A DNA stretch of 57,465 bases, filler included, from Acidimicrobiia bacterium (GTDB lineage: Bacteria > Actinomycetota > Acidimicrobiia > Spongiisociales > JAHEDJ01), in NCBI GenBank assembly GCA_029210695.1. It is 3 parts of 3 records of this genome, joined end to end, with 100 filler letters (N's around TTAATTAATTAA, not from the genome) between each part and the next. Parts side by side here need not be neighbours in the genome. Positions count along the whole stretch, not along the records: positions 21,171 to 39,291 come from JARGFH010000063.1; 2 more parts are not named here. One strand, 5' to 3'. A program made the position numbers and the translations under genes. Below the pieces are notes generated by a model. The model saw nothing but the letters and a program-made list of their open reading frames with translations. It was not told the origin of the DNA and searched no databases. How positions within the stretch are numbered: the stretch's first letter is position 1; every line of letters begins with the position of its first letter. Below, in pieces: positions 1,079 to 39,477 of the stretch.

Positions 1079-1079
1079 G

Positions 1080-6684: not shown

Positions 6685-6810
6685 GCGACTCCTTGTGGTG
6701 ACTAGCCCGTCTCACTCCGCCACACACCTCTATCACGATGCGGGTTCCGGCGGAAGGGGGTCGAGCACGCTCACTAGGGTTCAAGTGCCGTCCCAAGAGG
6801 AGAATCTGCA

Positions 6811-7614: not shown

Positions 7615-7650
7615 GCTTGATGAGTCGAGAGCCGACGTGCTGATCCGCGC

Positions 7651-8457: not shown

Positions 8458-8500
8458 GGTCGCAATGCTCGCACAGGTGAGCGTCTACGCAAGCATCGGG

Positions 8501-11837: not shown

Positions 11838-11930
11838 CTACCTTGCTCCTGGAATGGCCGCCAGCGTACCAAGCCGGAACCGATCTACGGTCGGAATAGT
11901 CGGAGGGTTCGGCGCCTGCGCGGCTGCGCG

Positions 11931-20997: not shown

Positions 20998-21070
20998 GTG
21001 GCTGCCGAAAAAGTGGCTTTCGGTGAGGTTGGTTGGCGGCGGGCCAGTCGTGGGTGATGCCGGAGACCAT
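20994..21070. mobile_element. IS end (IS1182/IS5-like) at contig edge
   Basis: CTAG (20994-20997) followed by GTGGCTGCCGAAAAAGT (20998-21014), the exact reverse complement of 39446-39462. Confidence 0.65.
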
Positions 21071-21170
21071 NNNNNNNNNNNNNNNNNNNNNNNNNNNNNN
21101 NNNNNNNNNNNNNNTTAATTAATTAANNNNNNNNNNNNNNNNNNNNNNNNNNNNNNNNNNNNNNNNNNNN
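21071..21170. other. Artificial contig linker
   Basis: N44-TTAATTAATTAA-N44, which places stop codons in all six frames. Confidence 0.97.
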
Positions 21171-21757
21171 GTGTGTTCGAGGAGGTCGCCTTTGACGGAG
21201 GTGGCGATGACGGGTCCGTCCCATTCGAGGAGGGCGGGGATGGCGAATCCGGTGGTCTTGCCGGTGCCGGCCGGTCCGATGACAGCGACTGAGTGTTGGG
21301 CTTCGGTGGCGATGAGTCTTCGGTTGACGGTGCCGAGGGTGAGCCGTCCTGGCTGGGGTCGGCGGATCAGGAGGGGTTTGAGGTCTCGGGGTTTGGCCCA
21401 TCGGGCCGATTCGCCGTTTGAGGAGTTCTGATGGCGGTCGTGCCAGCGGTAGCCGAGCGCACCGGCGCCAATCAGAACTGCCACGAGGAAGATGAGGGTG
21501 GCGTAGTAGGGGAGGGGGTCGGGGAGCAGGTCGCCGGCTGCAGGTGGCCATGCCTGGACCGGTTGTCCCGGGTTGACGATGAGCTTCCAGAGAATGAGCG
21601 GGCTCTCCAACAGGGGAACGTGCATCCAGGTGCCGTCCCAGAGGCGGGTGGCGACCTGGCCGGCGGTCCACACCATCAGGCAGGCTGCTATCAGGCCGCC
21701 GGTGATGATGGTGAGGATCTTCTCACCGTCAGGACTGTTCGGCGCCGGGTGGGTCAT
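21171..21757 (-). CDS. Type IV coupling protein VirD4/TraG family (5' part, truncated by contig edge)
   Basis: Two N-terminal TMs, SARWA, Walker A GPAGTGKT and VIATSVKGDL. Confidence 0.88.
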
Positions 21758-22212
21758 CGTTCGATACCCCACCGCCGTGCCGTCCGGTGTCGATTGTGTG
21801 GTTCGGTGATGAGGGTGCGCAGGAGTGGCGTTTGGCAGGCACCACAGCGACAGGCTCGTGGGGTGGGGTGGGTCCAACCGTCGGGCCAGTAGGGGATGGT
21901 GGTGGCACAAGGTGTGCAGAGGGCGTGGCTGCCGAGCAGCGGAATGAGGGTGTATTCACCGGCAACCGGGATCTGACTGTCGCAGAAGTCGCAGATCCAG
22001 AGGCTGTTGTCGTCGGGGACGCTGGTGATGATGACCACCCCGAGTCGTTCCATCTCTCCCCGGAACCCGGCTTCGGCTGCGACTCGGCGCCGGTAGGCCT
22101 CGCGATGGGCGGCGGGCCGGACGACGAACCGCAGATCGTCACGGCACGACTCACACAACCCCTGCGCCGTGAGGAGAGTTTCGGCGTCACAGCTCACACA
22201 TGCGTCGCTCAC
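21754..22212 (-). CDS. Cys-rich hypothetical protein (multiple CxxC)
   Basis: GTG start overlaps the upstream stop and its own stop overlaps the VirD4 ATG. Motifs CVSC, CESC, CDFC, CTPC and CRCGAC. Confidence 0.7.
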   Translation of the reverse strand: MSDACVSCDAETLLTAQGLCESCRDDLRFVVRPAAHREAYRRRVAAEAGFRGEMERLGVVIITSVPDDNSLWICDFCDSQIPVAGEYTLIPLLGSHALCTPCATTIPYWPDGWTHPTPRACRCGACQTPLLRTLITEPHNRHRTARRWGIER

Positions 22213-22526
22213 CTTTCCACCCCCTGGCTGACGGCTCGTTGCCGGTGGGGCCGGTTGACGATCTCGGCGAAGAGGAGAAGTCCCGCTACTCGATCGTCGG
22301 CATCCAGTTGGTCCCACTGGTCGAGGACCATCTGGGCGAACCCGCCGACGGGATGTGAGTTCCCGTTGAGGGCGTGGGCGATGCTCTGTCGCTCGTCGTC
22401 GTCGAGGTGGAGCGAGCCATCGGAAGGGCCATCGTTGGAGGCCGTTAGGGAAGCGAAGGCGGCGGCGATCCGCCGCTTGCTGAGAATCTCGGTCGGGTCG
22501 ATCGGCTGGCGTTGGACGGATGTCAT
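22209..22526 (-). CDS. Hypothetical protein (105 aa)
   Basis: GAAAGGAA RBS before the ATG at 22526; coupled to the next gene. Confidence 0.7.
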   Translation of the reverse strand: MTSVQRQPIDPTEILSKRRIAAAFASLTASNDGPSDGSLHLDDDERQSIAHALNGNSHPVGGFAQMVLDQWDQLDADDRVAGLLLFAEIVNRPHRQRAVSQGVER

Positions 22527-22539
22527 CTGTCGGTTCCTT

Positions 22540-23745
22540 TCAGTGGGTACAGCCGCTGGTAGGTGCGCTGGCGGGGCTGAGCCCGATCCCGTTCCACCAG
22601 GCCTCGAGCGGACCTTGCGGGCAGAGCAGGGCACCGTCGGGGTTCCGGATCTGGAAGTGGAGGTGTGGGCCGCTGGAGTTGCCGGTATTGCCCGACGTCA
22701 TGATCAGATGTCCGGCTGTCACCTCGGTTCCGGGTTCGACGGTCACTTGGGTGCCGTGGCAGTAGGTGTAGCTGTGGTTGTCGAGACCGGCGATGGTGAT
22801 TCCCCAGCCGCACCGACAGGTTGGGCATGGCTCGTAGACGTTGCTGATGGTGCCGGGGTGGGCGGCGTAGACGGGGGTGCCTTCGGGTACGCCGAGGTCA
22901 GAGGCGGGGTAGTCGTGGTGATTCCGGCGGATCTCGTCGACGGTCACTGCGCTGACCGGCAGCGGGAAGGCGTACAGCTCGTCGGCGGTGACCGCGCCTT
23001 GGGTGAACTGAAAGGCTCGGTAGTAGTCGATCCACCTGGTGACGGTGGTGACGTACTCGGCGGAGTTGTTGTAGCGGCGGAGCGCTCGGGCGAGGTCGGT
23101 GGGGTTGGTGTAGTCGCCGGCGCTGGCGATGCAGAGGTGGGCGACGGTGCCGAGGGCGGCGTCGAACACGTTCTGCGGGTCGGCCGTGCCGTCGTTGTTG
23201 CCGTCCCGTCCGAAGGCACGCCACGATCCGGGGAGAAATTGTGCAGGCCCAACCGCACGGTCCCAGGTCGGGTCGCCGTCGAGGAGACCACCGTCTGAGT
23301 CGGGAATGACGGCAGTGCCTGGCTGTGAGCCGTCGAGGGTGACCCCATAGAGGGGCGGGGTCACCTGTCCGTCTGAGCCGACTGTCCGTCCACCGGTCGT
23401 CGCGTGATTGGACTCGACCTTCCAGATGCCGGCGATGACCGGCCAATCGACAACACAGCCGGAGGCGATGCTCGGCGCGTTGGTTTCGGCGGCAACGTAG
23501 GTGGAGAACACCACCGGCGGGATGCCGAGCGCTCCGCTGGCGGCGGCCGCCGGGCTGCCGACCACCATCGCCGCCACCCCGAGCACCATCACGAGGAGGA
23601 GGACGAGGCCCATGGGTGCGGTGACGAGCCCGAGGGTGATGACGATCCGCCACAGCAGCGATCCGTTGTTGTGTTCGGCGAGTTTGTCGGCGAGCTTTCG
23701 CTTGGCGAGATGGGTGGCGGCGCGGGCGACGAGTTGCCAGCTCAC
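22540..23745 (-). CDS. Conjugation cell-wall hydrolase: lytic transglycosylase + M23 peptidase
   Basis: TM segment; VESNH, AVGPAQFLPGSW, DPQNVFDAA and YNNS (SLT-like); HHDYPASD and GPHLHF (M23). Confidence 0.88.
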   Translation of the reverse strand: MSWQLVARAATHLAKRKLADKLAEHNNGSLLWRIVITLGLVTAPMGLVLLLVMVLGVAAMVVGSPAAAASGALGIPPVVFSTYVAAETNAPSIASGCVVDWPVIAGIWKVESNHATTGGRTVGSDGQVTPPLYGVTLDGSQPGTAVIPDSDGGLLDGDPTWDRAVGPAQFLPGSWRAFGRDGNNDGTADPQNVFDAALGTVAHLCIASAGDYTNPTDLARALRRYNNSAEYVTTVTRWIDYYRAFQFTQGAVTADELYAFPLPVSAVTVDEIRRNHHDYPASDLGVPEGTPVYAAHPGTISNVYEPCPTCRCGWGITIAGLDNHSYTYCHGTQVTVEPGTEVTAGHLIMTSGNTGNSSGPHLHFQIRNPDGALLCPQGPLEAWWNGIGLSPASAPTSGCTH

Positions 23746-25238
23746 GCCGAGGTCCTCCGCTGAGCCTGCTGCCAGGCAACCGCCGCCAGGGCGGGCGCCG
23801 GTTGGTGTTTCTTGCGGGGCAAGGCTGGGATGTCGGTCGTGGTTTCGCGGATGGTGTGGGTGACGCCGAGCCCGGTGAGCCCTCCAGCCTGGTAGGGGCG
23901 GACCCAGGTGGCGCCGTGGGATCCGCCGATCCGGTTGCTTTCGAGTCGTTGGAGGGTGGAGTCGGCGAACCGTTGGGAGATGTCGAGGAGTTGGCGACGG
24001 CCGACCGCCATGACGGCCATGAAGAAGATCACCAGCAGGAACCGGGTCCACATGCCGCCAGATACGCCGAGAAGTCCGTTGAGACCGGTTACCAACAGGG
24101 CGAGGAAGACACCCATCACGATCACGAGCGCAACCACCCGCACGAGCGCGGCCACCCAATGCCACAGAAGGGCACGGCCGGCGCCGGGGAACAGCCCGGC
24201 GTAGAGGGCGATGGGCAGGAGAGCGATAAGGAACAGGGCCAGGCCCTTGGCCACTACCAGCGTGAAGGCGGTGACCATGAACAGCGCCAGCGCTGCGGCG
24301 GCGACCACCAGATACAGCAGAGCTCCGACCAGGCGCCCGACCGTGGCGTCGGCGTTGAAACTCGCTTGAGCATCGCATCCGGCGGCTTCCATCAGCTGTC
24401 GGGGGGTGTCATCGAACCCGTGCGGCCCTGAGATCAGTGCCTGGTTGCGGGCGTCCGCGCATGGACCCGCCGGGAGCGGTTGTCCCCAGTTGATGGTGTC
24501 GTAGGGGTCGCGAACGAACCCGGCCATCAACCCCCCGCTCACCCGATCGGATACATTTGCGCCTCGGTCGGTGCCGGCGGCGAGCGAGACGATCTCGGCT
24601 GAGATCCCCCCGGCGGTTTGCATCGCCCCGGTTACCGCGCCACCGAAGCCTGGTCCGGTAGTGACGTGGACGAGCACGGCGAACACGATGAGGGTGAGGG
24701 CGAACTCCCCGGCCCCCGCACCGACCTTGCCTCGCAGGAATTGCCAGCCCATGTAGAGGGCGGACACGACCAGTCCGAGGTGTGACAGTCGCATCGGTCC
24801 CAGCACTCGATCGTCCAACAGGTCGGCGACGGCGGTGGCTGCGTCCGTGAGCGCTCCTTCGATGATGAACCCGGTGGCGGCCTGGAGCAGCCAGATCGCC
24901 AGGGCGACAAGCATTTTGGCGATCGAGAAGACCAGATCGGTGGCGGTGCCGAGCGTGACGCAGCCGATGTCGCCGATGAGCCCGTCGTTGGCGCAGCCGA
25001 TGTCGTAGCGGCCGATTCTGACGATTCCTTGGCTGTTGTCAGTTGGGTAGTCGGTGGGCGGATACAGCTCCTCACCCAGCTCGACGCCGGGGGAGGGCTC
25101 TTCGGTCTGGGCGTGGGCGGGGGGCGCCCAGGCCGCGGTGATGACGAGGGCGGCTAGTGCCAGTACGGCGATCCACCCCCAACCGTCCAATGCCAGCGAT
25201 TGGCGACTGTGCTCCACCGTGTCTTGGTGGTGGCTCAC
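23742..25238 (-). CDS. VirB6/TcpH-like polytopic conjugation membrane protein
   Basis: Many TM helices and a 'PYDTINWG' segment; GTG start overlaps the VirB4 stop. Confidence 0.75.
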   Translation of the reverse strand: MSHHQDTVEHSRQSLALDGWGWIAVLALAALVITAAWAPPAHAQTEEPSPGVELGEELYPPTDYPTDNSQGIVRIGRYDIGCANDGLIGDIGCVTLGTATDLVFSIAKMLVALAIWLLQAATGFIIEGALTDAATAVADLLDDRVLGPMRLSHLGLVVSALYMGWQFLRGKVGAGAGEFALTLIVFAVLVHVTTGPGFGGAVTGAMQTAGGISAEIVSLAAGTDRGANVSDRVSGGLMAGFVRDPYDTINWGQPLPAGPCADARNQALISGPHGFDDTPRQLMEAAGCDAQASFNADATVGRLVGALLYLVVAAAALALFMVTAFTLVVAKGLALFLIALLPIALYAGLFPGAGRALLWHWVAALVRVVALVIVMGVFLALLVTGLNGLLGVSGGMWTRFLLVIFFMAVMAVGRRQLLDISQRFADSTLQRLESNRIGGSHGATWVRPYQAGGLTGLGVTHTIRETTTDIPALPRKKHQPAPALAAVAWQQAQRRTSA

Positions 25239-27742
25239 GGCGCTGTCCCGTCGGCGGTGAGCTTCGAATCGTCTGGCTGGTGGTCGAGGGAGGGCCATGG
25301 TCCGACCGCCACCCGGCTGGCGCCGGGGGTGGTAGAGAAGGCGCTGACAATGTCGGGGTCGTCGGGTGCAGCGATGCGGACCAGCCCAAGACGTCCTGAG
25401 GGGTCCCGCATGAGACACTCGCCGGTCCCGAGCGATGTGATCGTCTCGACGTTGTCGTCACGCCCATCGGAGCCGAGGAAGCGGAGCGCGTCATCAGCGG
25501 TTCCGGGGGACTGGCGGAACACGATCCGGTAGCCCAACAGGGTGTCGACGTCTTCGGTGCCGCTTTCGGCGGTGAGGTCGCCGGGGAGTTGGCTGAATGC
25601 CCACACCGCTGCGAAGTGCTTGCGGCCGTCGCGGATCAGGTCCATCACGAGGGCGTGACCCTGAGCGCTCGCAGTCAGGGCGTGCGCCTCGTCCAGCAGC
25701 AGGGCGGCGAACCGGTCAGAGTGGCGGAAAAGCACCCGGCGGGAAAAGGCGGCGACCAGGTAGAGGATTGCCTGGCCGAGGAGTTCCTCGGGGAGCTGAT
25801 CGTCCCGGGACACGTTGCGGCGGGGGAGGCGGAGGCCGGGGATGTGGAAGCACACGTAGTCGCCGTTGAGGTTGACGGCGGGTCCCGGGTCTCCGAACAC
25901 CAACCGGCCGTAGGAGATCTCTGCGAGCGCCCGCAGCTTGTCGGCCACCTCACGACCCGGTCCGTCGGACGCTTCGAGGTCGTCGACTACATCTCGCAGC
26001 CTGGGGAGTTGACCGGTCTGCGCGGCCCGTTCGAGAGTGTGGTGGGCGGCCCGGTAGCAGAGAGTTCCGGCGACAGATCCCGGTGGAGTCGCGGTGAGGA
26101 GGGTGATGAACCCGACCCCGTAGCGGAGGCGTAGTTCGTCGTTGTCGAACACTGCGAACGGGTCGAGACCCACGGTGGCATCGGCGGAGATCTCCACCAC
26201 CTGGGCGCTGCCTCCCACCATGTCGGCGACCCGACCGTATTCACCCTGCTCGGTGCGGTCGATGGCGACCACTTGGCCGCCCATCGCCACAGTGTTGCGG
26301 GCGAGGGTCTTGGCCAGGAAGCTCTTGCCTGCGCCGAGTTCGCCGATGGCGGCGAGCGATCCCGACCGGTTGAGGTCACGAGGCCCGTGAGCGGGATCCA
26401 GGAAGACGGGACGGGGCACAAGCCCGTCGAGGGAGTACCCGAGAAGCATCCCGCCGGGGTCGCCGACACCCGATCCGGCGAACGGCATCGCCGAGGCCAG
26501 ACCGTCAGGCAGTAGGTCCTGGCCGTACTCGCGAACCACCGGCAGTACCGGCCCTCCGGGGAGCATCGAGGTGAAACATGCCAGCTGAGCGCCGGTGGGC
26601 CGGTAGAAGTTGAACTCGGCGGCCCGAAACGCCGACTCCAAGATCGCGATCCGGTGTTCGAGTTCGGCGAGGTCTCGGTGGGCGACGGCCACGGTGGTCG
26701 TCGCCCGCAACGCTGGGAGCGCCGGATTGGACTCGAGGCGAGCCCGATGCTCGTCGACCGCGTCGGTGGCGGCGGCCAGGGTGGTGGCCGGGCCGGCCGG
26801 GTCACCGCCCGGTTCGGCGAGCTGGCCGACCAGGTTCCGCTTTGCTCGTAGCGCCCGGCGGCGGGCGGCCTGGTTGTCGACCCGTTCGATCCGTATCGCC
26901 CAGTCCACCGGGTAGGGGAGTTGATCGTCCAGATGCCACAGCCACTCCCCGGACCCATACGGGAAGGTCCACGCCGCTGGGGTTTCGCCCAGGCACGAGA
27001 ACGCCTGATGGCCGATCCCGTGGTCGGGGTCTTCGACGGTGAGGTACCGCCAATGCGACGGACGATTCGGATCGGTGCGGCGGCCACCCTCGAAGTAGAC
27101 GGCGTCACGATCCAGTCGAACTACCGACGGACGATCAGCGCTGTTGTCATTCGGGAGGGGCAGGTCGAGGAGCCCTCGGAGCACGGCTCGCTCATACAGC
27201 CAGCGCACCTGGCCGGCGTCGAGGGGTCGGAGACGGAGATGCTGTGACAGCTGGTCTGCCAGCGAACTCGCCTGTCCCATCGCCACAGCAACTCGACGCT
27301 GCCCCACAACCGATGGAGGTGTCCCGAAGGCAAATCCCAGCTCCGAGGCCGCCGCCCGGAGCCGGTCCACCATGCGGCGCCCGCTGCTCGTGTCAGGGAG
27401 TTGGACGGCGAGGAACCAGCGGCGCTCAGACATCGACTCCGAAGCCAGCCGATTCGCCGCGCGTCGCGCAGTACCCGCCCAGCCAGGCGATCGCCCGTGG
27501 TCCTCGCCACGGATCCGCTGCTCGAGTTCGTCCCGTGAGAGCCTGCGGGCGATCGACAGGATCAGCGAATGAGTCGGGAGGCCGAGGAGGGCGGAGGTGG
27601 TGCGGGCATGCACCTCCCGGGCATCACGAACCGACCGATGCGGATAGGGGAATGGTTGCACCTCGAAGCACGCCCACACGGCACCGTGTGCACCCCACAC
27701 GAGATGACCGGTGATGCCGCGCACGGGCAGCGGATTACCCAT
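25235..27742 (-). CDS. VirB4-like conjugation ATPase (TcpF/AAA_10)
   Basis: Walker A GELGAGKS, Walker B LLDEAH, RDGRKH, SQLPGD and GECLMRD motifs. Confidence 0.92.
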   Translation of the reverse strand: MGNPLPVRGITGHLVWGAHGAVWACFEVQPFPYPHRSVRDAREVHARTTSALLGLPTHSLILSIARRLSRDELEQRIRGEDHGRSPGWAGTARRAANRLASESMSERRWFLAVQLPDTSSGRRMVDRLRAAASELGFAFGTPPSVVGQRRVAVAMGQASSLADQLSQHLRLRPLDAGQVRWLYERAVLRGLLDLPLPNDNSADRPSVVRLDRDAVYFEGGRRTDPNRPSHWRYLTVEDPDHGIGHQAFSCLGETPAAWTFPYGSGEWLWHLDDQLPYPVDWAIRIERVDNQAARRRALRAKRNLVGQLAEPGGDPAGPATTLAAATDAVDEHRARLESNPALPALRATTTVAVAHRDLAELEHRIAILESAFRAAEFNFYRPTGAQLACFTSMLPGGPVLPVVREYGQDLLPDGLASAMPFAGSGVGDPGGMLLGYSLDGLVPRPVFLDPAHGPRDLNRSGSLAAIGELGAGKSFLAKTLARNTVAMGGQVVAIDRTEQGEYGRVADMVGGSAQVVEISADATVGLDPFAVFDNDELRLRYGVGFITLLTATPPGSVAGTLCYRAAHHTLERAAQTGQLPRLRDVVDDLEASDGPGREVADKLRALAEISYGRLVFGDPGPAVNLNGDYVCFHIPGLRLPRRNVSRDDQLPEELLGQAILYLVAAFSRRVLFRHSDRFAALLLDEAHALTASAQGHALVMDLIRDGRKHFAAVWAFSQLPGDLTAESGTEDVDTLLGYRIVFRQSPGTADDALRFLGSDGRDDNVETITSLGTGECLMRDPSGRLGLVRIAAPDDPDIVSAFSTTPGASRVAVGPWPSLDHQPDDSKLTADGTAP

Positions 27743-28166
27743 CCGCCCGCCTCCTCAGACTCATCGGGGCCGACACGATCACTATGCCGATGTGGTTGCC
27801 TCGGGTCGGCCGTGGTTGCGTGACGGGTGTGCCGTTGCGGACTCCGTGTCTGCATCCAGGCGACAGGATCACGTTGGCGAGACCAGCGGCGACCAGGAAG
27901 GGGGAGCGGCCTTCGATTCGCCAATGCCTGACCGCCCACCCCGACCCCGCTATCAGCAGCGTGAAGAAGGCCAGGTTTCCGACCGCTCCCATGTGCGCCC
28001 ACACCGGTCGTGTCGCCAACAGCAGCCCGCTCATCCCTGCGACCGCCCCCAGTTGAGAGGCCGAAAGGGCCCACGGGAGTCGCCATCCGGCAACGTGTCC
28101 GATGATCACCGGGTGACGGAGGGCCTGTGTGTACGAGTGGTAGACGTCGACGTCCATCGCCCGCAC
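27735..28166 (-). CDS. TcpE/VirB3-like conjugation membrane protein
   Basis: YTQALRHPVIIG..GWRLP, two TMs and IEGRSP; immediately upstream of VirB4. Confidence 0.75.
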   Translation of the reverse strand: MRAMDVDVYHSYTQALRHPVIIGHVAGWRLPWALSASQLGAVAGMSGLLLATRPVWAHMGAVGNLAFFTLLIAGSGWAVRHWRIEGRSPFLVAAGLANVILSPGCRHGVRNGTPVTQPRPTRGNHIGIVIVSAPMSLRRRADG

Positions 28167-28430
28167 CTACAGCGACCCATCGGCCGATACGAAAATCGTG
28201 TGGGCGGGCGGGGCGAGGGCGCCGACGTCTTCGGCTACCTTGTTCTGTAGCCAGTCGGTGGCGTTTATGGCGAACAGGACGATGGCGGCCAGGATGATCA
28301 CTCCGATCACGGCCGACACGGTCCGCTTCACCAGCCACGACCACAAGATCATTCCGATGGCGATCAACACCGCCGCCCCGATCGCCAGGTTGGTCAAGTT
28401 CCCGACCACGGTTTCTGCTGTCTGGATCAT
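28167..28430 (-). CDS. Small two-TM conjugation protein (pilin/TcpD-like)
   Basis: 87 aa with two hydrophobic helices and a GAGG RBS; lies between TcpC and TcpE. Confidence 0.65.
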   Translation of the reverse strand: MIQTAETVVGNLTNLAIGAAVLIAIGMILWSWLVKRTVSAVIGVIILAAIVLFAINATDWLQNKVAEDVGALAPPAHTIFVSADGSL

Positions 28431-28443
28431 TCGAGTCCGCCTC

Positions 28444-29373
28444 TCAGTTGGTTTCCGACGATGCGACAGGTGGTGCCGACAAGAGCTCCGATACCTCCCA
28501 GCGGCCGTCCCGCTGTTCGACAACGAGGGCGTACTCGAGAATCTGAGCCCGGCCGGCGATGTCAGTCGCTCGGACAACCACCGCCACCTCGGTCCGACCG
28601 CCTGACGTTTCGGCCATCCCTGCCTGGAGGATCTCGACACTCGAGAACGGCGTCGGCCGGACCGGGACTATGGGCGAAGACGGGGAGGTGTACCGGGTGA
28701 GCTCGCCGTCCCCCGCCAGATAGGCAGCCAGGAAGCGCGACAGCATCTCCTCCAGCCCGGGTGTCGCATCGAGTCCGTCCACGTGATCGATCAGCAGGTC
28801 CGGGGCAGTGGCCCCGCCGGGTGCCGGCATGAGGGTCGGCAGGCCGGTGATGGCCCATCCAGTTGTCGTCTCGGCCACTCCAACCGAGTAGAAGCGGGTG
28901 CCTGCCGGAATCCATTTGGGCTGACCGTCGGCGTCGCTTTCGGCGGCGACAACCTCCGCAGCCACCGCCACCGCGTAGTAGCCAGGGGCGACCTCCGAGG
29001 CGCCAAGGCTTGTCGTCCTCGTCGCCGACCACGATCCGCTCTCGACTTCATCCAACGAGACGTTGTTCAGGAAGGGACCGAGCGAATCGGTCGATCCCTC
29101 GCCGGCACTGAGATAGGTGGCGATGAACAGCTCCGCGAAACCCTCGGCTCCAGCCGTCTCGGGGGGTATCTCGACCCTGGCCTCGATGTTGACGAGGTCG
29201 AGTCGTTCGCTGAGTGACGACAGCTGTGTTGCCACTAGAAAAGCGGTGACCGGACCTGAGATCACCAGGAACCACAGGACGAGGTGCATGGCCCGGACGG
29301 TCAGCACCGGATTCCATCCCCGGCGAGCGGACGGTCGACTGGCGATCGCCTCCTGATGGTCCTCGGAGGTCAT
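28444..29373 (-). CDS. TcpC/VirB8-like conjugal transfer protein
   Basis: N-terminal TM, GFAELFIATYL, FLAAYLAGDGEL and RDGRWEV segments. Confidence 0.8.
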   Translation of the reverse strand: MTSEDHQEAIASRPSARRGWNPVLTVRAMHLVLWFLVISGPVTAFLVATQLSSLSERLDLVNIEARVEIPPETAGAEGFAELFIATYLSAGEGSTDSLGPFLNNVSLDEVESGSWSATRTTSLGASEVAPGYYAVAVAAEVVAAESDADGQPKWIPAGTRFYSVGVAETTTGWAITGLPTLMPAPGGATAPDLLIDHVDGLDATPGLEEMLSRFLAAYLAGDGELTRYTSPSSPIVPVRPTPFSSVEILQAGMAETSGGRTEVAVVVRATDIAGRAQILEYALVVEQRDGRWEVSELLSAPPVASSETN

Positions 29374-29693
29374 CGGATCCCCCTTGACTGATCCATGACG
29401 CCACAGCGTCGAAGTTGCTGTGAAGCCATCTGACGGCGCAATGCCTCAACTCGGGCGTACTCGGCTCTCCAGTAGCCGTCCTCGAAGAAGCCCACCACCC
29501 GGCCGGCAAGTTCGCGGGACGGCAACGTTCCGCCAGTACTCAGGAGGTCGTCGAGCAGATCACACCAGATGTCCCAACCGGCCCGGATCTGGCTGTCCAG
29601 CTCGACGTCGGTCAGCGTGCGGGCGTCACCGTCTGACTGGGTGACCTTGAGACCGAGCTTTCGGTCCCTGGGTTGCTGTGAGAAAGCTTGCAT
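29370..29693 (-). CDS. Hypothetical protein (107 aa)
   Basis: GGAGG RBS; stop overlaps the TcpC start. Confidence 0.65.
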   Translation of the reverse strand: MQAFSQQPRDRKLGLKVTQSDGDARTLTDVELDSQIRAGWDIWCDLLDDLLSTGGTLPSRELAGRVVGFFEDGYWRAEYARVEALRRQMASQQLRRCGVMDQSRGIR

Positions 29694-29798
29694 ATTTCCT
29701 CCACTCGGTCAGTGATCGGGGTCGGTCGTCATGGCCGATCGCAGGCATAAGGGGCGGGCGGGGGAGCGGGACGCGACAGGCTCTCGAACTCCATGTGG

Positions 29799-30548
29799 TC
29801 ACCGAGCCAGGGTCAGGCCTTGGCGAACACGACGCTCGGCCCGCAGCCTTCGCTGTCGCAGCGTCTGGGGATCCACGTCCTCGGCGGCAGCCAGCTCATC
29901 GACCGAGACCCCAGCAACCCGGGTCATCACCACCAGGCGAGCCTCCCCCTCCCGAACCCGCCCTCGTTCACGAACCCACTCGACGAGTTGCTCAACCTCC
30001 TTCTCCTCGGACGGGCCGTCGGTGCACTGGTCGCGGACTTCGAGGTGCCTGTAGTCGTCGACGAACACGACAGGTTCCGATCTAGCACGAACTGCTGAGC
30101 GCAGGACTCGACGCCTCGTGTTCGTATAGATCCGGAAGCTCGGTGGTGTTCCTGCCGGCTCGGTGGCACACCAGGAGATGACGTCCAAGGCCGTGGCTAC
30201 GACCCGGGCGGCTCGTTCCTCTGTATCCCACCCGCGGATCCCGTTGATAAGGCTTTTCAACCCCGGGAGCACAACTTGGAGCGCGACTCGGCTGGCCAGT
30301 CCGTCGCCGGTGGCTCGCTCGAGCAGAGCAGCGAGAACCTGATCCCGCTCCGCCCAACTCGACACATCGCACCTCTGCGCAGTGGAAACAAGACGGTCAC
30401 CGTCATCGAATGCGAGTCGGTCGTCATCGGCTGACCAACTGGCCAGTCGATCTCGCAACCAGCGCGACTCGGACAGGATCCGCCACTCCGCATCAAGGCG
30501 ACGAATCAGCTCAGTGTCGGCCGCCCGTGCTGGGGCTCTCGACCCCAT
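29799..30548 (-). CDS. Sigma-70/ECF-like regulator heading the transfer operon
   Basis: C-terminal region-4-like HTH (EARLVVMTRVAGVSVDELAAAEDVDPQTLRQRRLRAERR) and an AGGAG RBS. Confidence 0.6.
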   Translation of the reverse strand: MGSRAPARAADTELIRRLDAEWRILSESRWLRDRLASWSADDDRLAFDDGDRLVSTAQRCDVSSWAERDQVLAALLERATGDGLASRVALQVVLPGLKSLINGIRGWDTEERAARVVATALDVISWCATEPAGTPPSFRIYTNTRRRVLRSAVRARSEPVVFVDDYRHLEVRDQCTDGPSEEKEVEQLVEWVRERGRVREGEARLVVMTRVAGVSVDELAAAEDVDPQTLRQRRLRAERRVRQGLTLAR

Positions 30549-30590: not shown

Positions 30591-30659
30591 GCAACCCTGT
30601 CAGCAGAGTGTTAGCAACCCTGTCAGCAGAGTGTTAGCAACCCTGTCATCTGAGTGTTC
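30591..30659. repeat. Three tandem 23-bp direct repeats
   Basis: gcaaccctgtcagcagagtgtta twice exactly, followed by gcaaccctgtcatctgagtgttc. Confidence 0.92.
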
Positions 30660-30754
30660 ACCGGCTCGGCAGGATCTGGTGCAGCTTGTTTCTCTTGTTC
30701 GGATCGCCGCACGGCAAACGCGGCCGGAACCCAGCTCCGTCTAGGCTGAACGGC

Positions 30755-32098
30755 ATGTATGCAGCTGGTCCGATGGGGGCAGGACAGCCACCCTATGCCC
30801 TGGCATTGGCCGATGTCGCGAAGCGTGGCCGTCTCGTGGTCTACACGGGCGCTGGACTTAGTCGGGGTCATCCAACGGATATCCCGGCTGGCGCCGAGGT
30901 GGCCCGTCGTTGCCATGAGCGGCTGGTCGATCTGCTCGGAGCCGATGCGCTGGATGGCGCAGACTCTTCGAACCTGACGTCAGTCGCAGACGTCGTGGCG
31001 GCTCTTGATGGTGGCCTCGATCTACTACGACGGACGGCTGTCGGCGTGGCTGAGTTCACAACGGCCGATCCCAACTTCGGTCACGAAGCCCTTGCGCTGC
31101 TCCTTCTCGAAGGTCTTGTCTCGACTATCACTACCAATTGGGATGACTGTATAGAACGTGCCGGGGGCGCTGAGCGCGTGCTGGCCGTCATCTCGGACCA
31201 GGATCGTCAACAGATTCACGCGCCTGCCCTTCTGAAGGTTCACGGCTGCGCAACCCGGCCTGATACGGTTCTTCTGACCAGTAAGGACCTGACGAACCCC
31301 CCGGTGTGGGTCCGAGATGAGATAAATGCCCGTCTTGCTGACTCACATGTGGTTTTTGTTGGCATCGGGGATGTTGCGGGGTACGTTCGGTCACGGATCG
31401 AAGAGGCTGCCGAGGCCGTTGGCGCGGGTGGCGCTATATATGTCGTATCGCCGAGTGTTGACAACAATTGGGATGAGAGCCAGTGGGCTGAGGTCCTGCC
31501 GGATCATCCGGCAGAACGCCGGTTTGGGCTGACTGCTGATGAGTTCCTTGATGGGTTGGCAGCGGCGTGTGTTCGGCTGCTTCTTCGAGAGATAGCTGAG
31601 GCAATCGAGGAGCAGAGTGAGGCCCTGGCCGCATTCAACAGGGCGCGCGGTGCTTTCGAAGTTGTCACTCCTTTGGACGCCCTCCGATGGCTCCGGGCCT
31701 GTGCAGTTCCGAGGCAACCGGGTCACTCGGTACTTCGTCAACAGTCCTTCACGTCGGCGCTTATCGCATTGGGTGTGCTTGGCCCCGATGATGTCGAGTT
31801 GCACCCACTCGGTCGTGCGATCACGAACGGCTCGGTGTACGAGGTTCTCGTCGGTGTTGGGAATATCACAGCTTCGAGATGTCGCCGTGAGGCGGAATCT
31901 CGCCTAATCAAATACCGGTCGGAGGGCGGCGATACCGCAACGAGCCCGACCTTTCTCGTTGCTGGAGCTGTGGGTCGGTTCACTAGTCCTGGAGGGCTGG
32001 AGCAGTCTGTGCTCGGTGACTCGGACCCCAGAGATTTGGTATCGGGGCCGCTGACGGTCTCGCCAACCCTCATTCGCGCAGAGGACCTGGCTGCATGA
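30755..32098 (+). CDS. SIR2-family (SIR2_2) NADase-like effector with C-terminal domain
   Basis: YTGAGLS, ITTNWD, LKVHG and VVFVGIG sirtuin motifs. The ATG at 30755 lies 7 nt after a TAGGCT -10 box. Confidence 0.85.
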   Translation: MYAAGPMGAGQPPYALALADVAKRGRLVVYTGAGLSRGHPTDIPAGAEVARRCHERLVDLLGADALDGADSSNLTSVADVVAALDGGLDLLRRTAVGVAEFTTADPNFGHEALALLLLEGLVSTITTNWDDCIERAGGAERVLAVISDQDRQQIHAPALLKVHGCATRPDTVLLTSKDLTNPPVWVRDEINARLADSHVVFVGIGDVAGYVRSRIEEAAEAVGAGGAIYVVSPSVDNNWDESQWAEVLPDHPAERRFGLTADEFLDGLAAACVRLLLREIAEAIEEQSEALAAFNRARGAFEVVTPLDALRWLRACAVPRQPGHSVLRQQSFTSALIALGVLGPDDVELHPLGRAITNGSVYEVLVGVGNITASRCRREAESRLIKYRSEGGDTATSPTFLVAGAVGRFTSPGGLEQSVLGDSDPRDLVSGPLTVSPTLIRAEDLAA

Positions 32099-32661
32099 TG
32101 GCCGAACCCACATTCCGAGCCGATCCGGATCTTGCGGCAATAGCGAGAGAGGTTCTATCCACCGAAGGCTTTGCCCACGAATCGATTGGCGAGGCAGCAG
32201 CCGGAATCCTTCTCGCGGAGAATCGTTACTTCATCATCGCTCTTGCGGCTACGCCCACCATCAGCGACCTCTTGATCGCTGAGCCCATTGTCGAGCGAAC
32301 CGTGAGTGAACGCATCGAGGCCGCCAACGTGGGTCCGAAGCTGTGGGATGCCTACGTTGTGCTGCTCACTCAGGAACGCCCGTCAGAAGAAGGGTCAGCG
32401 TCCCGGCCGCTCTTTGGCATCAACTATGACACTCGTGGGTTCAGGCGGATCGCTCGGGCGGGGGTCGAGCCCACAATCCGCGGTGTTCGGAATGCCCTCA
32501 CCCCATTTGTCCAACCAGTGCGACTGGAGGACGCCGGTCTTATGGACGATCCTTTCGATTCCCTGGCCACCGCCCTCGTTAAGCATGGGATTGAGCCGGA
32601 GCTAGCTTCACGTTCCGTAGAGATCTTCCAGCAGGGCGGAAGGATCGATGATGCGCTCTGA
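32095..32661 (+). CDS. ABC-three-component middle component-like protein (MC1/LmuC-like)
   Basis: 188 aa coupled between the SIR2 gene and the ATPase. The WDAYVVL...INYDTRGFRRI pattern recalls ABC-3C MC1 (from memory, not searched). Confidence 0.65.
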   Translation: MMAEPTFRADPDLAAIAREVLSTEGFAHESIGEAAAGILLAENRYFIIALAATPTISDLLIAEPIVERTVSERIEAANVGPKLWDAYVVLLTQERPSEEGSASRPLFGINYDTRGFRRIARAGVEPTIRGVRNALTPFVQPVRLEDAGLMDDPFDSLATALVKHGIEPELASRSVEIFQQGGRIDDAL

Positions 32662-34786
32662 CGTTCGTCTGGTGGGACTTGCTGTCGAATCGTTCCGCGG
32701 ATTCCGCGATCGTCGGGAGTTTGACCTCGACGCATCGACAGTTGTCATCACCGGTCCGAACGGAACCGGAAAGACGAGCTTCTTCGACGCAATGCAGTGG
32801 GTATTACTCGGGTCGATTGAGCGCTTGGAGGGCCTCCGGGCCCGAAAGAACGTCGAACACGTCGTAAGCAGATACCGACCGGGTGGCCGAGCGCGAGTAG
32901 AACTCACGCTCGTCTTCGAGGGTAGAGAAATCACCGTTGCCCGCACAGGGGACTATCGAGACAGCACGCTGGAAGTGCGAGGCGCCAACACAAAACCGCT
33001 GTTTGGCGATGCCGCACGGGATTGGCTGGGAGAGTGCCTCGTTCCGACCGAGCCCTACTCTCTTGCAATGGCCCTGACCACGTGTGGCCTTCTTCAGCAG
33101 GACGTCATGAGATCAGTGCTAGAAGCCAAACCAGCAGACCGATACGCACACATAACCACGGTCCTCGGGCTCCTAGGGCTTGAGGATTACGAGGACGCCG
33201 TCCGAGTCACGGCCAAAGAGGCCAACGATCAGAATGGGAACGCGCAGCACGATGTTGAAAGGGCTCGGGGCGCGGTCGAGACGGCATCCGCCATCCTCGA
33301 AACGCTCGAACAGCGCGCACTCCAACGTATCTCCGTGACTGTGGCTCGCTCCGAGATTGACCGCCAAGTGGCAGAGATGCCTGACTCAGTGAGCGTGACT
33401 CTTCCCAGCGCTTTGGACCTCGAGGCCGTATCCGAGCTAGCCCGCAGGTGTCACGAGCTAGTCGACCGATTCACAGGGTTCGTGCTCGCCGGGACGGAGA
33501 TCGAGAGCGACCGGAACAACCTCCAGCCGGCGGTCGGAGACGACCAGATCCGCGAGCTTCAAAGCGGCGTTGATGCCGCCAGTGCTGCTCTGGAGACGGA
33601 ATTGGCCGAACAGGAAAAGGCGCTCTCGCTTCTCACGGCTGCCGAGCAGTCGAGCGAGGAGATCTTGCGCCTCGCCGCAGCAGCACTCCCACAGCTGACT
33701 TCGCATTGTCCCGTTTGCGGCCAGTCGATCGACCCTGATTCTGTGGCAGAGCGGCTCCGAAGCATCGCAGGAGACAGTTCGACGCTCATAGAACTGCGCG
33801 CATCGGTCGAGAGCAGGTCTGCTCAGGTCGATGCAATGACGGTCGAGCGGGACAAACGCCAGTCCGAACTCGACAAGGCACAAGAGATCAACCGACAATG
33901 GGAGATGCTGCGTCGGCGGCATGTCCGGCTCGCCGATGAGCTGAACGAGAGCGAACTCGTCCAGGGTGTCCCCATAGCTGTAAGCCTTCTGACGCTCGAG
34001 TCGGTGGTCCTTGATGGTCCCGCGGTCACAGATTCGCTAGCTCGACTTGGTTCAGCTCTCGAACGCTACGCAGAAATCGCCCAGGAATCCCAGTCGGCAG
34101 GTGAGATCGATCGTGCAAGAGCAGAGCTGGCTAGCGCAAATCAGGCACTTGATGAGAGGACCACACACGGGGCTCGCCTTGCGACGCGCGCGGCAAGGCT
34201 GAAGCAACTGGCAGACGCCACGGCGAAGGCGCGCGTCGACGTTACCAAAGCGAGGTTTGAGGCGATCGAGCCTTTGGTTTCGGATATCTACAGCCGGCTC
34301 GATCCGCACCCAGCGTTCAAGATGATCGGGTTTGAACATGACACGTACTACGGAAAAGGGACCTCTAGCCCCGTGGTGCGTGATCTTGTGGCCGGAGTTG
34401 ACGCCGATCCTCTGATCGTTTTCTCTGCGTCGCAGGCCAACATTGCCGCTCTGTCGTACTTCCTGGCGATGAGCTTGGGCGCAGGCGAACGCGCCCTGCC
34501 GTTCGTGCTCTTGGATGACCCGCTCCAGTCAATGGACGATGTAAATGTGCTCGGATTCGCCGATCTATGCCGATTCGTCCGTTCGGAACGTCAGCTCATG
34601 ATCTCGACGCACGACCGGCGATTCGCAAACCTGCTCCGCAGAAAGCTGACTCCCCGCACATCGCAGGATCGCACGATCGTCTACGAGTTCGGTGGCTGGG
34701 ACCGCAGTGGCCCTTCAGTGACCATTGAGTCGCTTGAGGATGAGCTACAGGATTCGCCGCTGCGTTTGCTGGCGTCATCCGCATAG
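32648..34786 (+). CDS. Rad50/SbcC-like SMC ABC ATPase with zinc hook
   Basis: FRGF, Walker A GPNGTGKTS, Q-loop LQQD, coiled coils around a central CPVC, signature FSASQ, Walker B LLDDP..SMDD and H-loop STHD. Confidence 0.9.
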   Translation: MMRSDVRLVGLAVESFRGFRDRREFDLDASTVVITGPNGTGKTSFFDAMQWVLLGSIERLEGLRARKNVEHVVSRYRPGGRARVELTLVFEGREITVARTGDYRDSTLEVRGANTKPLFGDAARDWLGECLVPTEPYSLAMALTTCGLLQQDVMRSVLEAKPADRYAHITTVLGLLGLEDYEDAVRVTAKEANDQNGNAQHDVERARGAVETASAILETLEQRALQRISVTVARSEIDRQVAEMPDSVSVTLPSALDLEAVSELARRCHELVDRFTGFVLAGTEIESDRNNLQPAVGDDQIRELQSGVDAASAALETELAEQEKALSLLTAAEQSSEEILRLAAAALPQLTSHCPVCGQSIDPDSVAERLRSIAGDSSTLIELRASVESRSAQVDAMTVERDKRQSELDKAQEINRQWEMLRRRHVRLADELNESELVQGVPIAVSLLTLESVVLDGPAVTDSLARLGSALERYAEIAQESQSAGEIDRARAELASANQALDERTTHGARLATRAARLKQLADATAKARVDVTKARFEAIEPLVSDIYSRLDPHPAFKMIGFEHDTYYGKGTSSPVVRDLVAGVDADPLIVFSASQANIAALSYFLAMSLGAGERALPFVLLDDPLQSMDDVNVLGFADLCRFVRSERQLMISTHDRRFANLLRRKLTPRTSQDRTIVYEFGGWDRSGPSVTIESLEDELQDSPLRLLASSA

Positions 34787-34977
34787 GTCTGTGACCACGG
34801 CCGGCCATTCGCGATTCCCGCGCTCCGCGATCGATGTCGTGTTAAACGGCCTCTGAACAGGCAGTACGCGGGTTTCCCCTGGTAGTGGCAACCCCTAAGT
34901 TCGGGATCATAACCCGGTGGTCACACGTTCGGCCTTCGCTCCCGGCGGCGAGCAGTGGGGAACGATCCTCTTCCGCT

Positions 34978-35088
34978 CTAGTGGTCTGTCTGCTATTTGA
35001 TGACCGGGGTAGGCAGTGCCACGAACCCTGCCACAGCGGGGATCGTCCGGCAGGAGACCAAGTCACCAAATCCGCGACGGACCACTAG
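34978..35088. mobile_element. 111-bp MITE / internally deleted IS630-like element
   Basis: Terminal inverted repeats ctagtggtctgtc...atttg / caaat...gacggaccactag. The same end sequence occurs at 39215. Confidence 0.7.
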
Positions 35089-35273: not shown

Positions 35274-36572
35274 CTACCTGCGACTGCGACGCTCGGAGCC
35301 TCCCCAGAATGCTGCGCTTGCTGCGATCGAGACGCCAACGCCAAACAGCAGGGTTCCGATCTGAAGGCGCCATCGAGCCGCGTTCTCCTCTCCCTGATCC
35401 AGTAGCTCGAAACGAGGCGGCAGTGAGAAGCCACCCGTGCTTTCCCACTTGAGAGTCACGGTCGAGGCCAACGGCGGATCAGCGCTGACCACCCGCGCTC
35501 CTACAGCAAGCGAACCGTCTTCCGTGTAGGGCTCATAGTCAGCGATGAGCGAAACAGGCAAGGGGCGGACGTCTACGTCGGACAGCGAGTCGCCGCCAAC
35601 TGCGACCACGATCGGGCCGGCTCCAACAAGCCTGCCGTTGTGCTCTTCGACCCAAGAGGCGGCGACGGCTGTCTCAATCTGAAGTCGAACTGCGTACCGC
35701 TTCTGCTCGAGTTTGAAGGAGCACTCGGGTCCAGCCATGAGCAACTGTCCGACTTCAGCCGCGCTTCTCGACTCAGTCACGGTCGGTTCCGAGCCTTCGA
35801 TCATGAAGTAGGAAGCTGCAACTCTCTCCCCGATGAGCACCTGTGCCTCGTCTAAGGCGAAGTCTGACTCCCGGCATTCGTAGTCGGACATGGCGATCGC
35901 TAGATCTGGCTCCGCCGCCTCAAGGTCAAGTCGGAGTGGCGCATCCGGCCCGGATCGGTAATACGCCCCACTCAGGACCTGCGCTACGTCAAACACGAGC
36001 AGCCCCACTTGAGCAGAGGGACCAGAGGCAGCCAACGTTGAGCCCTCTGGAAACGAGGCGGTGACAATTAGGCGAGTACCGCCTGGATCCCAGTCGGGAT
36101 GTGGAGTGTGCACGGATCGGTGTGACACTCGGGCGCCGGCGAGGTCTCTCAGAACCGAAAGGTTGCCAGGCAACTCCTCGATGGTTGGCGACACGGGCAT
36201 CGATGGGTCGTGCATAGGCGCAAAAGAAACCGAAACCTCTGCATCAGAGGCGGCGACTCTTGGGTCATCGCTCACCACGGCCACGAGCAGGATCGGGCGG
36301 TCTGATTCGCCCAAGAGCACACTCTGCGGGAGAGCACTCACGGCTACAAGAGCGGACCCAAGGGTGAGCAGGGTGCCCGCGAGCACCCAATACCAGCGAA
36401 TTCGGTTGGGGCTACGTGACGTCCTCGGAGGCGTGTGGCCCCCAGGCACATGCGGATGGTGTGACCGATTGCTTTCCAACCCCCGATGGTTCAGGTATCG
36501 AGAGATGGCAGCGACCAGAATCACAGCGCATGCTGCCACGGTGACTTCCAGCCGAGGTCGTCTAAACCGCAT
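35274..36572 (-). CDS. Hypothetical membrane protein (N- and C-terminal TMs, large soluble domain)
   Basis: 432-aa ORF with a GAGGGG RBS and hydrophobic segments at both ends. Confidence 0.6.
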   Translation of the reverse strand: MRFRRPRLEVTVAACAVILVAAISRYLNHRGLESNRSHHPHVPGGHTPPRTSRSPNRIRWYWVLAGTLLTLGSALVAVSALPQSVLLGESDRPILLVAVVSDDPRVAASDAEVSVSFAPMHDPSMPVSPTIEELPGNLSVLRDLAGARVSHRSVHTPHPDWDPGGTRLIVTASFPEGSTLAASGPSAQVGLLVFDVAQVLSGAYYRSGPDAPLRLDLEAAEPDLAIAMSDYECRESDFALDEAQVLIGERVAASYFMIEGSEPTVTESRSAAEVGQLLMAGPECSFKLEQKRYAVRLQIETAVAASWVEEHNGRLVGAGPIVVAVGGDSLSDVDVRPLPVSLIADYEPYTEDGSLAVGARVVSADPPLASTVTLKWESTGGFSLPPRFELLDQGEENAARWRLQIGTLLFGVGVSIAASAAFWGGSERRSRR

Positions 36573-39291: not shown

Positions 39292-39391
39292 NNNNNNNNN
39301 NNNNNNNNNNNNNNNNNNNNNNNNNNNNNNNNNNNTTAATTAATTAANNNNNNNNNNNNNNNNNNNNNNNNNNNNNNNNNNNNNNNNNNNN
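39292..39391. other. Artificial contig linker
   Basis: N44-TTAATTAATTAA-N44. Confidence 0.97.
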
Positions 39392-39466
39392 CCAGTGTGA
39401 CCGAAAACGACCTCGAACGCGAGCACCCCCGACCCACAACCACCAACTTTTTCGGCAGCCACCTAG
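39392..39466. mobile_element. IS end (IS1182/IS5-like) at contig edge
   Basis: ACTTTTTCGGCAGCCAC (39446-39462) followed by CTAG; inverted copy of 20998-21014. Confidence 0.65.
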
Positions 39467-39477
39467 GGTCTTGCGCG

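Follow-up and report, generated by a model that had tools for sequence, protein, structure and literature searches.

We describe three overlapping genes at positions 30755-34786 (plus strand) of a 57,465-nt stretch of DNA from an Acidimicrobiia bacterium (assembly GCA_029210695.1); the whole stretch is called the window hereafter. In all likelihood these genes constitute a type II Lamassu defence operon, equivalent to an ABC-three-component (ABC-3C) system, with the order lmuA-lmuC-lmuB and a SIR2 domain in the effector. The trio is a further, rather divergent member of an already catalogued kind, because SIR2 is listed among the LmuA effectors (Millman et al. 2022, bioRxiv 10.1101/2022.05.11.491447; PMC10586767). 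A first-pass annotation made from the sequence had proposed the arrangement effector, middle component and ABC ATPase known from ABC-3C or Lamassu systems. This is what we find: gene 3 strongly matches LmuB models, gene 2 is probably related, at a distance, to ABC-3C middle component 1 (MC1), and gene 1 has the layout of LmuA. Two parts of the proposal have to be amended, one on the carrier (see Genetic context) and one on the family: ABC-3C and Lamassu should not be set apart, since Lamassu types I and II, 'Lamassu-like' systems, ABC-3C and DdmABC make up one superfamily (PMC10586767; bioRxiv 10.1101/2025.06.23.660979). The suggestion that the trio is a divergent variant is fair, genes 1 and 2 being missed by the PADLOC LmuA and LmuC models and by Pfam MComp1. 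Sir2 effectors are known from the 'long' as well as the 'short' type of Lamassu (Haudiquet et al. 2025, PMC12663957 section 5).

The three genes are translationally coupled, and our list of open reading frames (ORFs) and the sequence agree with the overlaps that had been noted. Genes 1 and 2 share an ATGA (32095-32098), and genes 2 and 3 overlap by 14 nt (ATGATGCGCTCTGA, 32648-32661). All three reading frames are full length and intact. An alternative TTG start upstream of gene 1, at 30686, is possible, but the ATG at 30755, where 25 homologues have their start, is the more likely one.

The ATPase

Judged from its sequence, gene 3 encodes a Rad50-like ATPase of the LmuB type, which has a single zinc hook and whose ATPase motifs are intact. 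LmuB models are the best four of its 75 matches in PADLOC (PDLC03865 at 5.5e-51, PDLC03859 at 1.9e-45, then 3.3e-33 and 7.5e-23), and the PDLC03859 alignment pairs residues 21-666 of gene 3 with positions 15-595 of a 611-position model. Pfam recognizes SMC_N (1.1e-16) and AAA_23 (1.1e-13), with a weak, sub-threshold match to Rad50_zn_hook (0.0088), and the NCBIfam Rad50/SMC (structural maintenance of chromosomes) and repair models all score far below their cut-offs. Among solved structures in the PDB, a profile of the gene 3 family matches Rad50 (4.2e-13) and SbcC (1.1e-4), as well as the Rad50 zinc-hook structures 6zff (1.9e-4) and 1l8d (1.7e-3); no solved LmuB is found in the best 60 of its 83 PDB matches at E<=1.

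The features that the first-pass annotation had read in this protein, namely 712 residues, a Rad50-like character, a central CPVC and an FSASQ signature, are all present, and the motifs are invariant or nearly so in homologues. CPVC is the only CxxC of gene 3 and lies in the exact middle of the protein. Eight homologous sequences, from the window and related loci, all keep the Walker A motif, a QQD Q-loop, CPVC, the signature FS[AST][SA]Q, the LLDD of Walker B, a QSMD D-loop and a T-H H-loop. In gene 3 itself the signature stands at residue 592, before Walker B, and the D-loop QSMDD at 627, after it. Gene 3 may hydrolyse ATP normally, because its Walker B is of the standard DD form and not the deviant D[QSTE] of short systems. 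The homologous ORFs measure 715-761 aa from stop to stop. Among 72,556 plasmids, the nearest relatives of gene 3 are found in two Bacillaceae operons, at 28 and 27% identity.

The middle component and its predicted place on the ATPase

Gene 2 belongs to a family of 68 clusters, nearly all 186-191 aa long and named only 'hypothetical protein'. Twenty-four positions do not vary within the family, among them G80-P-K82-x-W84-D85-x-Y87 and Y111-D112. In the AlphaFold2 (AF2) model of gene 2, with a mean predicted local distance difference test score (pLDDT) of 77.7, an alpha/beta N-terminal domain (about 1-140) is joined by a linker (142-149, pLDDT below 50) to a three-helix C-terminal domain (153-187).

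From the following comparisons, gene 2 is probably a homolog of ABC-3C middle component 1/LmuC (PF20289), and we regard the relationship as real but distant. Of the 30 clusters nearest to gene 2 in the ESM Atlas, 25 fall in a set that carries PF20289 (MComp1) on 12-19% of its members; the scores are 0.96 and 0.93, with 233 and 215 shared features out of 256. The Atlas model of gene 2 superposes on MComp1-bearing clusters with template modelling (TM) scores of 0.66 and 0.54. An hhalign comparison of the gene 2 family with three annotated MC1 proteins aligns 119 columns colinearly (P = 0.0023) and sets KLWDAYVVL against LRWDMYLVL. Its score of 27.0 is not reached by any of 100 column shuffles (mean 12.7, standard deviation 2.4, maximum 21.3), and the reversed template scores 16.5. 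The MC1 alignment has three rows, a search from the Priestia MC1 having yielded only two proteins. Neither a nuclease fold nor a nuclease activity is claimed for gene 2, its restriction-endonuclease-like matches being too poor (TM 0.2-0.4, E 0.006-0.3).

Modelling of the complex predicts with confidence that gene 2 docks on gene 3. The predicted pair scores 0.61 (runs of 0.66, 0.58 and 0.61), and the best of three controls scores 0.00. This mark is reached by 116 of 157 solved complexes and by 2 of 215 mismatched pairs; own alignments were used for the complex, so these counts are a rough calibration. The score expresses model confidence. Contact agreement between runs is at least 89% and partner pLDDT at least 78. 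In the model, the tail helices of gene 2 (153-188) sit on residues 174-192 and 514-556 of gene 3, i.e. on the coiled-coil strands next to the head, and the N-terminal domain contacts the C-terminal head lobe (610-710). The C-terminal helices of Mre11/SbcD likewise bind at the base of the coiled coil. For long LmuC, an extra short domain after an unstructured linker has been proposed to lie at the LmuB head like the SbcD C-terminal domain on SbcC (PMC12663957). The predicted position of gene 2, at the head and coiled-coil base, agrees with that proposal and differs from the solved short systems, in which LmuC is at the apex of the coiled coil (PMC12663957; bioRxiv 10.1101/2025.06.23.660979).

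The SIR2 effector

Gene 1 comprises an N-terminal SIR2_2 domain (about 1-257) and a C-terminal domain (CTD, about 258-447). The Pfam match to SIR2_2 (1e-11) covers residues 124-237. The sirtuin motifs of the earlier annotation are where it had placed them (GAGLS at 32, TTNWD at 126-130, KVHG at 161-164) and vary little or not at all in homologues: across 26 aligned sequences there is no change in G32-A-G34-x-S36, T126-T-N128-W-D130 or H163-G, which include the putative catalytic residues N128, D130 and H163. The AF2 model of gene 1 (pLDDT 83.6, predicted TM score 0.86) has 171 structural matches at E<=0.001 in Foldseek. Its first ~300 residues superpose on NADases of defence systems, with the SIR2 protein of SPARSA as the best match (5.3e-9), and KomC, ThsA, DSR2 and Avs5-SIR2 among the further best ones (5.3e-9 to 1e-7). 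The PADLOC matches of gene 1 are also defence SIR2 proteins.

A domain that the first reading of gene 1 did not recognise is indeed present behind SIR2_2, with a length of about 190 aa and no match to a known family. The model shows helices (261-342), then strands forming a sheet (348-406), and a disordered acidic loop (412-433) with a near-invariant D427 and an invariant G431-P432 at its end. A profile built from nine CTDs was searched against 1.84 billion representatives and found 191 clusters at E<=0.001. From the 150 matches listed, we scanned 73, which are all the new ones of at least 342 aa; the remainder are 13 already-known SIR2_2 proteins and 64 short fragments. SIR2_2 is carried by 65 of the 73 full-length matches, six have no family, and two are unrelated repeat proteins.

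Related loci

One scan of species-representative genomes returned ten related loci, in Acidimicrobiia, Microbacterium, Rhodococcus, Solirubrobacterales, Jatrophihabitans, Dermatophilaceae and one Ignavibacteriales metagenome-assembled genome (MAG). The expectation that the homologues would occur as a trio was borne out: in nine of the ten loci the three genes are found in the same order and on the same strand, gene 1 being cut by a contig end in two of them. The tenth (L009) has the gene 1 CTD (6.4e-23) and gene 2 without gene 3, and an ORF with DUF4277, a transposase-associated family, downstream (454-2050). Some relatives are decayed. The gene 3 ORF of L002 stops early (6485-8665) and the genes of L005 read in several frames (4600-8665); both are MAGs, and assembly errors could explain the broken frames.

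The flanks of the trio vary, with two IS110 transposases in L003 and an integrase in L005. In L007, which is from a Solirubrobacterales MAG, the neighbours of the trio encode a patatin-like phospholipase, an AAA_16 protein of 988 aa and two HsdM-type methylases (89-4180, 9323-12429), and these surroundings look like a defence island. The three genes thus travel together through variable neighbourhoods. No Mre11/SbcD-type gene is present in 59 flanking ORFs of the ten loci, which come from a crude ORF picking and are mostly without a family.

Assignment to the Lamassu/ABC-3C superfamily

The equivalence of the two names in the model libraries was controlled with two plasmid operons, of Priestia aryabhattai and Bacillus sp. 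S3 (L011 and L012), in which RefSeq annotates a hydrolase, an 'ABC-three component system protein', an 'ABC-three component system middle component 1' and an 'SMC family ATPase'. In PADLOC their ATPases match the LmuB model that is best for gene 3 (1e-78 and 5e-135), their MC1 proteins match LmuC (7.5e-9 and 4.4e-9), and three of the four effector-side proteins match LmuA, the 'ABC-three component system protein' of L011 matching nothing. Therefore, 'ABC-3C with MC1' is 'Lamassu with LmuC' in these libraries. The heads of gene 3 align with both ATPases in BLASTP (7e-27 and 7e-15), including the DD Walker B and a CPACG hook. Beside the ATPase, the assignment of the trio is supported by the effector-plus-CTD layout of gene 1, taken as a layout and not as homology, and by the small middle gene that lies between the effector and ATPase genes, overlaps both and is kept in nine of ten loci.

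Within the superfamily, the trio has several features of the long type. Long Lamassu are described as having a Walker B of the form hhhhDD, a single CxxC and an LmuB of about 800 aa, and short ones a deviant Walker B D[QSTE] and an LmuB of about 600 aa; the CTD of long LmuA consists of helices, a conserved acidic loop and a beta-sheet (PMC12663957). The trio has the hhhhDD motif, one CxxC, a two-domain gene 2 and a CTD with helices, acidic loop and sheet, the latter compared with the verbal description in that paper.

A number of results weigh against this assignment and must be set beside it. With its 712 aa, gene 3 is not of the long-type length and stands between the published averages of the short and long types. 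PADLOC, which is clear for gene 3, returns neither LmuA for gene 1 nor LmuC for gene 2, the latter having no match to any model at E<=10. Gene 2 also has no match in Pfam and nothing meaningful in NCBIfam, and the Pfam MComp1 model finds none of 22 family members at E<=10. The hhalign probability of gene 2 against MC1 is low (12.6%). Structure comparison did not place gene 2 either: Foldseek against the PDB gives neither SbcD/Mre11 nor a solved LmuC, and its single match at E<=0.001 is to an unrelated domain. The gene 1 CTD matches no Pfam family, shows no similarity to two annotated ABC-3C effector proteins in hhalign (E 0.85 and 0.37), and retrieves only its own family, with no named cluster outside it, from the ESM Atlas. 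No other effector domain stands in front of this CTD in the 73 proteins scanned. As the CTD is found almost solely behind SIR2_2, the swapping of effectors that is typical of Lamassu is not visible for it, and this lack of visible shuffling is the weakest point of the family assignment. Finally, the activity of gene 1, which probably destroys NAD+, is argued by analogy, and in the literature searched, within its available parts, Lamassu with a SIR2 effector appear in catalogue and review mentions and none has been tested experimentally. The term 'Lamassu-Sir2' has no occurrence in that literature.

Two published remarks bear on the CTD. Its lack of detectable homology weakens membership less than it seems, because LmuA CTDs have been called 'variable' (PMC10586767). 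That it is tied to SIR2 agrees with the remark that the Sir2 effectors of Lamassu were acquired independently (PMC12663957 section 5). All in all, the trio differs from catalogued Lamassu in degree, by an ATPase of intermediate length, by a CTD and a middle protein that have diverged beyond the reach of the PADLOC and Pfam profiles, and by its mostly actinobacterial range.

It is conceivable, and we lean slightly against rather than for it, that the trio represents an undescribed actinobacterial clade of long-type Lamassu. Such a clade would be characterized by a private SIR2-linked CTD, counted here in about 190 protein clusters, and by a divergent MC1/LmuC that, in the manner of SbcD/Mre11, clamps the coiled coil near the head of a compact Rad50-like LmuB with a zinc hook and, by its DD Walker B, the competence to hydrolyse ATP. 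If true, it would be a living intermediate between SbcCD and the structurally known short Lamassu, and the first tractable case of an SMC-like sensor that switches on an NADase instead of a nuclease. The effector and middle genes seen here escape the profiles of PADLOC 2.0 and Pfam, and such systems would be under-called in Actinomycetota.

Genetic context

Two identical artificial linkers (N44-TTAATTAATTAA-N44) were found by repeat search at 21071-21170 and 39292-39391. The window is therefore composed of at least three assembly contigs placed end to end, and adjacency across the linkers is not real. The trio is carried on the middle contig (21171-39291, 18,120 bp), whose features are given in Table 1; a protein search independently placed the gene 2 product on a contig of 18,121. 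The other contigs encode a Lon protease and a nitroreductase (left) and Maf, a patatin and ThrRS (right), which are not demonstrated neighbours of the trio. A perfect 22-nt inverted match (20993-21014 versus 39446-39467) lies on these outer contigs, about 55 nt outside each linker, and may be a shared repeat at the ends of assembly contigs.

Table 1. Features of the operon and of the contig that carries it (positions in the window)
Feature	Position	Strand	Remarks
VirD4-like ORF	21119-21910		cut by contig end; family scan
M23/SLT cell-wall hydrolase	22540-24378	-	family scan
TrbL/VirB6-like	23742-25418	-	TrbL 2.1e-5
VirB4/TcpF-like	25235-27742	-	1.3e-49 and 3.7e-43
TcpC	28444-29373	-	1.7e-13
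249-aa ORF, divergent from gene 1	29799-30548	-	no match in Pfam, NCBIfam, PADLOC
Three tandem 23-nt direct repeats (GCAACCCTGTCAGCAGAGTGTTA)	30591-30659	.	two identical, third copy 87% identical
Gene 1	30755-32098	+	LmuA-like effector, 447 aa
Gene 1 C-terminal domain, residues 258-447	31526-32095	+	presumed docking/oligomerisation domain; matches no known family
Gene 2	32095-32661	+	LmuC-like middle component, 188 aa
Gene 3	32648-34786	+	LmuB-like Rad50/SbcC-type coiled-coil ABC ATPase, 712 aa
Walker A GPNGTGKTS, residues 36-44	32753-32779	+	motif in gene 3
CPVC zinc-hook motif, residues 354-357	33707-33718	+	invariant in 8 of 8 aligned gene 3 homologues
Walker B FVLLDD, residues 619-624	34502-34519	+	'hhhhDD' form; L621, L622, D623, D624 invariant in 8 of 8
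432-aa ORF adjoining the trio	35274-36572	-	no match in Pfam, NCBIfam, PADLOC
Tyrosine recombinase fragment, 130 aa	36562-36954	-	Phage_integrase positions 2-63 of 172 only
HARE-HTH/Mrr protein, 358 aa	36902-37978	-	two HARE-HTH domains and Mrr_cat nuclease domain

Type IV secretion genes fill the minus strand from 21.2 to 29.7 kb, so that the trio is, as first reported, divergent from a conjugation block. The operon had been called borne by an integrative and conjugative element (ICE). The conjugation genes are indeed on the same contig, but an intact integrase with attachment sites was not seen: no recombinase other than a fragment of 130 aa is encoded, and the element is cut off at the contig ends. 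The carrier may be an ICE or a plasmid. Because the contig ends at the linkers, the element borders and the integration site cannot be read from the window. The search for borders found no tRNA gene, the repeat search found no flanking direct repeats besides the linkers, and no plasmid in PLSDB resembles the whole contig by megablast. The recombinase fragment has a 53-nt overlap with the 3' end of the Mrr-like gene and overlaps the beginning of the 432-aa ORF as well, and this suggests decay or rearrangement at an end of the element. By its G+C content the contig looks mosaic, with 65-69% in the conjugation block (21172-30500) and 60-61.5% from the trio onward (30700-35000); owing to this lower G+C, the trio may be a later insertion.

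The 23-nt repeats lie in the divergent intergenic region between the 249-aa ORF and gene 1, 96 nt upstream of the gene 1 start, and may be an operator or a binding array. A scan for promoters and terminators gave nothing exceeding shuffled expectation. The end of the protein encoded by the 249-aa ORF looks helix-turn-helix-like by eye, and it is possibly a regulator. Downstream of the trio, at a distance of 2.1 kb, the HARE-HTH/Mrr protein is a second defence-type gene on the contig, with PADLOC matches to PDC-S02 (8.9e-37) and to a type IV methyl-directed restriction model (1.7e-13).

Proposed mechanism and alternative explanations

Work on Lamassu with nuclease effectors has described a cycle in which LmuA is sequestered, released upon sensing of DNA ends, and then oligomerises (bioRxiv 10.1101/2025.03.14.643221; PMC12663957; bioRxiv 10.1101/2025.06.23.660979), and NAD+ depletion with abortive infection has been proposed for the SIR2 effector (bioRxiv 10.1101/2022.05.11.491447). 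By analogy with this work, we can propose the following. A dimer of LmuB joined by the zinc hook would, together with LmuC, hold the CTD of LmuA, so that the effector stays an inactive monomer. LmuA would be released when the complex binds foreign DNA ends or replication intermediates and turns over ATP. The freed effector would oligomerise and its SIR2 domain hydrolyse NAD+, and the cell invaded by a phage or a plasmid would stop growing before the invader spreads.

Such a complex could serve mainly in the competition between mobile elements, as cargo of a conjugative element that excludes rival plasmids or ICEs, like DdmABC in Vibrio cholerae, rather than against phages. We consider this rather unlikely, on evidence that points in both directions. 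Type IV secretion genes and a recombinase fragment lie on the same 18.1-kb contig as the trio, relatives of the trio are found beside IS110 transposases and an integrase, and Lamassu/DdmABC is reported to act on plasmids as well as phages (bioRxiv 10.1101/2022.05.11.491447; PMC10586767). However, the defence-island look of the L007 locus (patatin, AAA_16 protein, type I methylase genes), the type IV restriction-like gene near the trio and the G+C difference that makes a later insertion possible weigh against it, and sequence does not separate anti-plasmid from anti-phage action.

It is improbable that the SIR2 domain modifies a specific protein or nucleic acid after activation, as a deacylase or ADP-ribosyltransferase, instead of being a suicide NADase. 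The sirtuin catalytic residues are common to both activities, and NCBIfam aligns gene 1 locally and weakly with NAD-dependent deacetylases (E 2.1e-4), at a score that falls far short of the cut-off. Against this, its Pfam family is SIR2_2 and not the sirtuin deacetylase family, its top structural matches are all defence NADases, and its PADLOC matches are defence proteins.

The probability that the operon is a decaying remnant without current function is lower still. The truncated recombinase on the contig and the state of some relatives (L005 in several frames, L002 with an early stop in gene 3, L009 without gene 3 and with its DUF4277 ORF) could be taken that way, whereas the trio itself has intact, full-length frames and has lost none of the catalytic and structural motifs that do not vary in the families. 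Lastly, that gene 3 is a DNA-repair paralogue of SbcC/Rad50 with genes 1 and 2 as unrelated neighbours, as its profile matches to Rad50 and SbcC and the Rad50/SMC models listed by NCBIfam might suggest, is hardly credible, given that the LmuB models outscore every repair model by far, that the genes overlap by 4 and 14 nt and are syntenic in Actinomycetota and one Ignavibacteriales genome, that gene 2 sits on gene 3 in the predicted complex, and that no SbcD/Mre11 phosphoesterase, whose absence had been remarked from the start, is encoded by the 24 neighbouring ORFs scanned in the window or by the flanking ORFs of related loci.

As a Lamassu operon with a SIR2 effector, the trio would be of interest beyond its host. 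Lamassu is among the commonest bacterial immune families, and its mechanism is known only from short-type systems with nuclease effectors. Only one long-type Lamassu is reported as validated (PMC12663957 section 5). The trio would be a reasonable model to ask whether the logic of sequestration, release and oligomerisation extends to NADase effectors, and how Lamassu derived from SbcCD.

Comparison with known systems

The closest counterpart is the catalogued Lamassu with a SIR2 effector, which has the same order of effector with CTD, small middle gene and SMC-like ATPase, and the same N-terminal SIR2 domain. The trio differs from it in that its ATPase has 712 aa instead of about 800 and that genes 1 and 2 are missed by the LmuA and LmuC models of PADLOC 2.0. 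The ABC-3C MC1 operons of the Priestia aryabhattai and Bacillus sp. S3 plasmids are the nearest annotated relatives of gene 3. They share with the trio the top LmuB model, the DD Walker B and a CPxCG hook, and their middle protein, of 185-190 aa, has the core W-D-x-Y-[LV]-[VI]-L in common with gene 2. Their effectors, in contrast, are of the hydrolase or protease type, split over two genes and with a CTD showing no detectable similarity to that of gene 1, and their ATPases are longer (963-982 aa).

DdmABC (Lamassu-Cap4) of Vibrio cholerae and LmuACB of Salmonella have the same three-part logic and are the source of the mechanism proposed here. They are of the short type: their effector is a Cap4 nuclease, their Walker B is deviant, LmuC sits at the apex of the coiled coil, and the V. 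cholerae LmuB is without a zinc hook. SbcCD and Rad50-Mre11 resemble the trio in the Rad50-like heads, the antiparallel coiled coil with a central zinc hook and, as predicted by the model, the C-terminal helices of the partner (gene 2 in the trio) gripping the base of the coiled coil; the trio has no nuclease subunit, a much shorter coiled coil and, in addition, the SIR2 effector. ThsA, DSR2, SIR2-APAZ/SPARSA, KomC and Avs5 use other sensor modules and no SMC-like ATPase, and it is the SIR2 fold and its catalytic residues that they have in common with gene 1.

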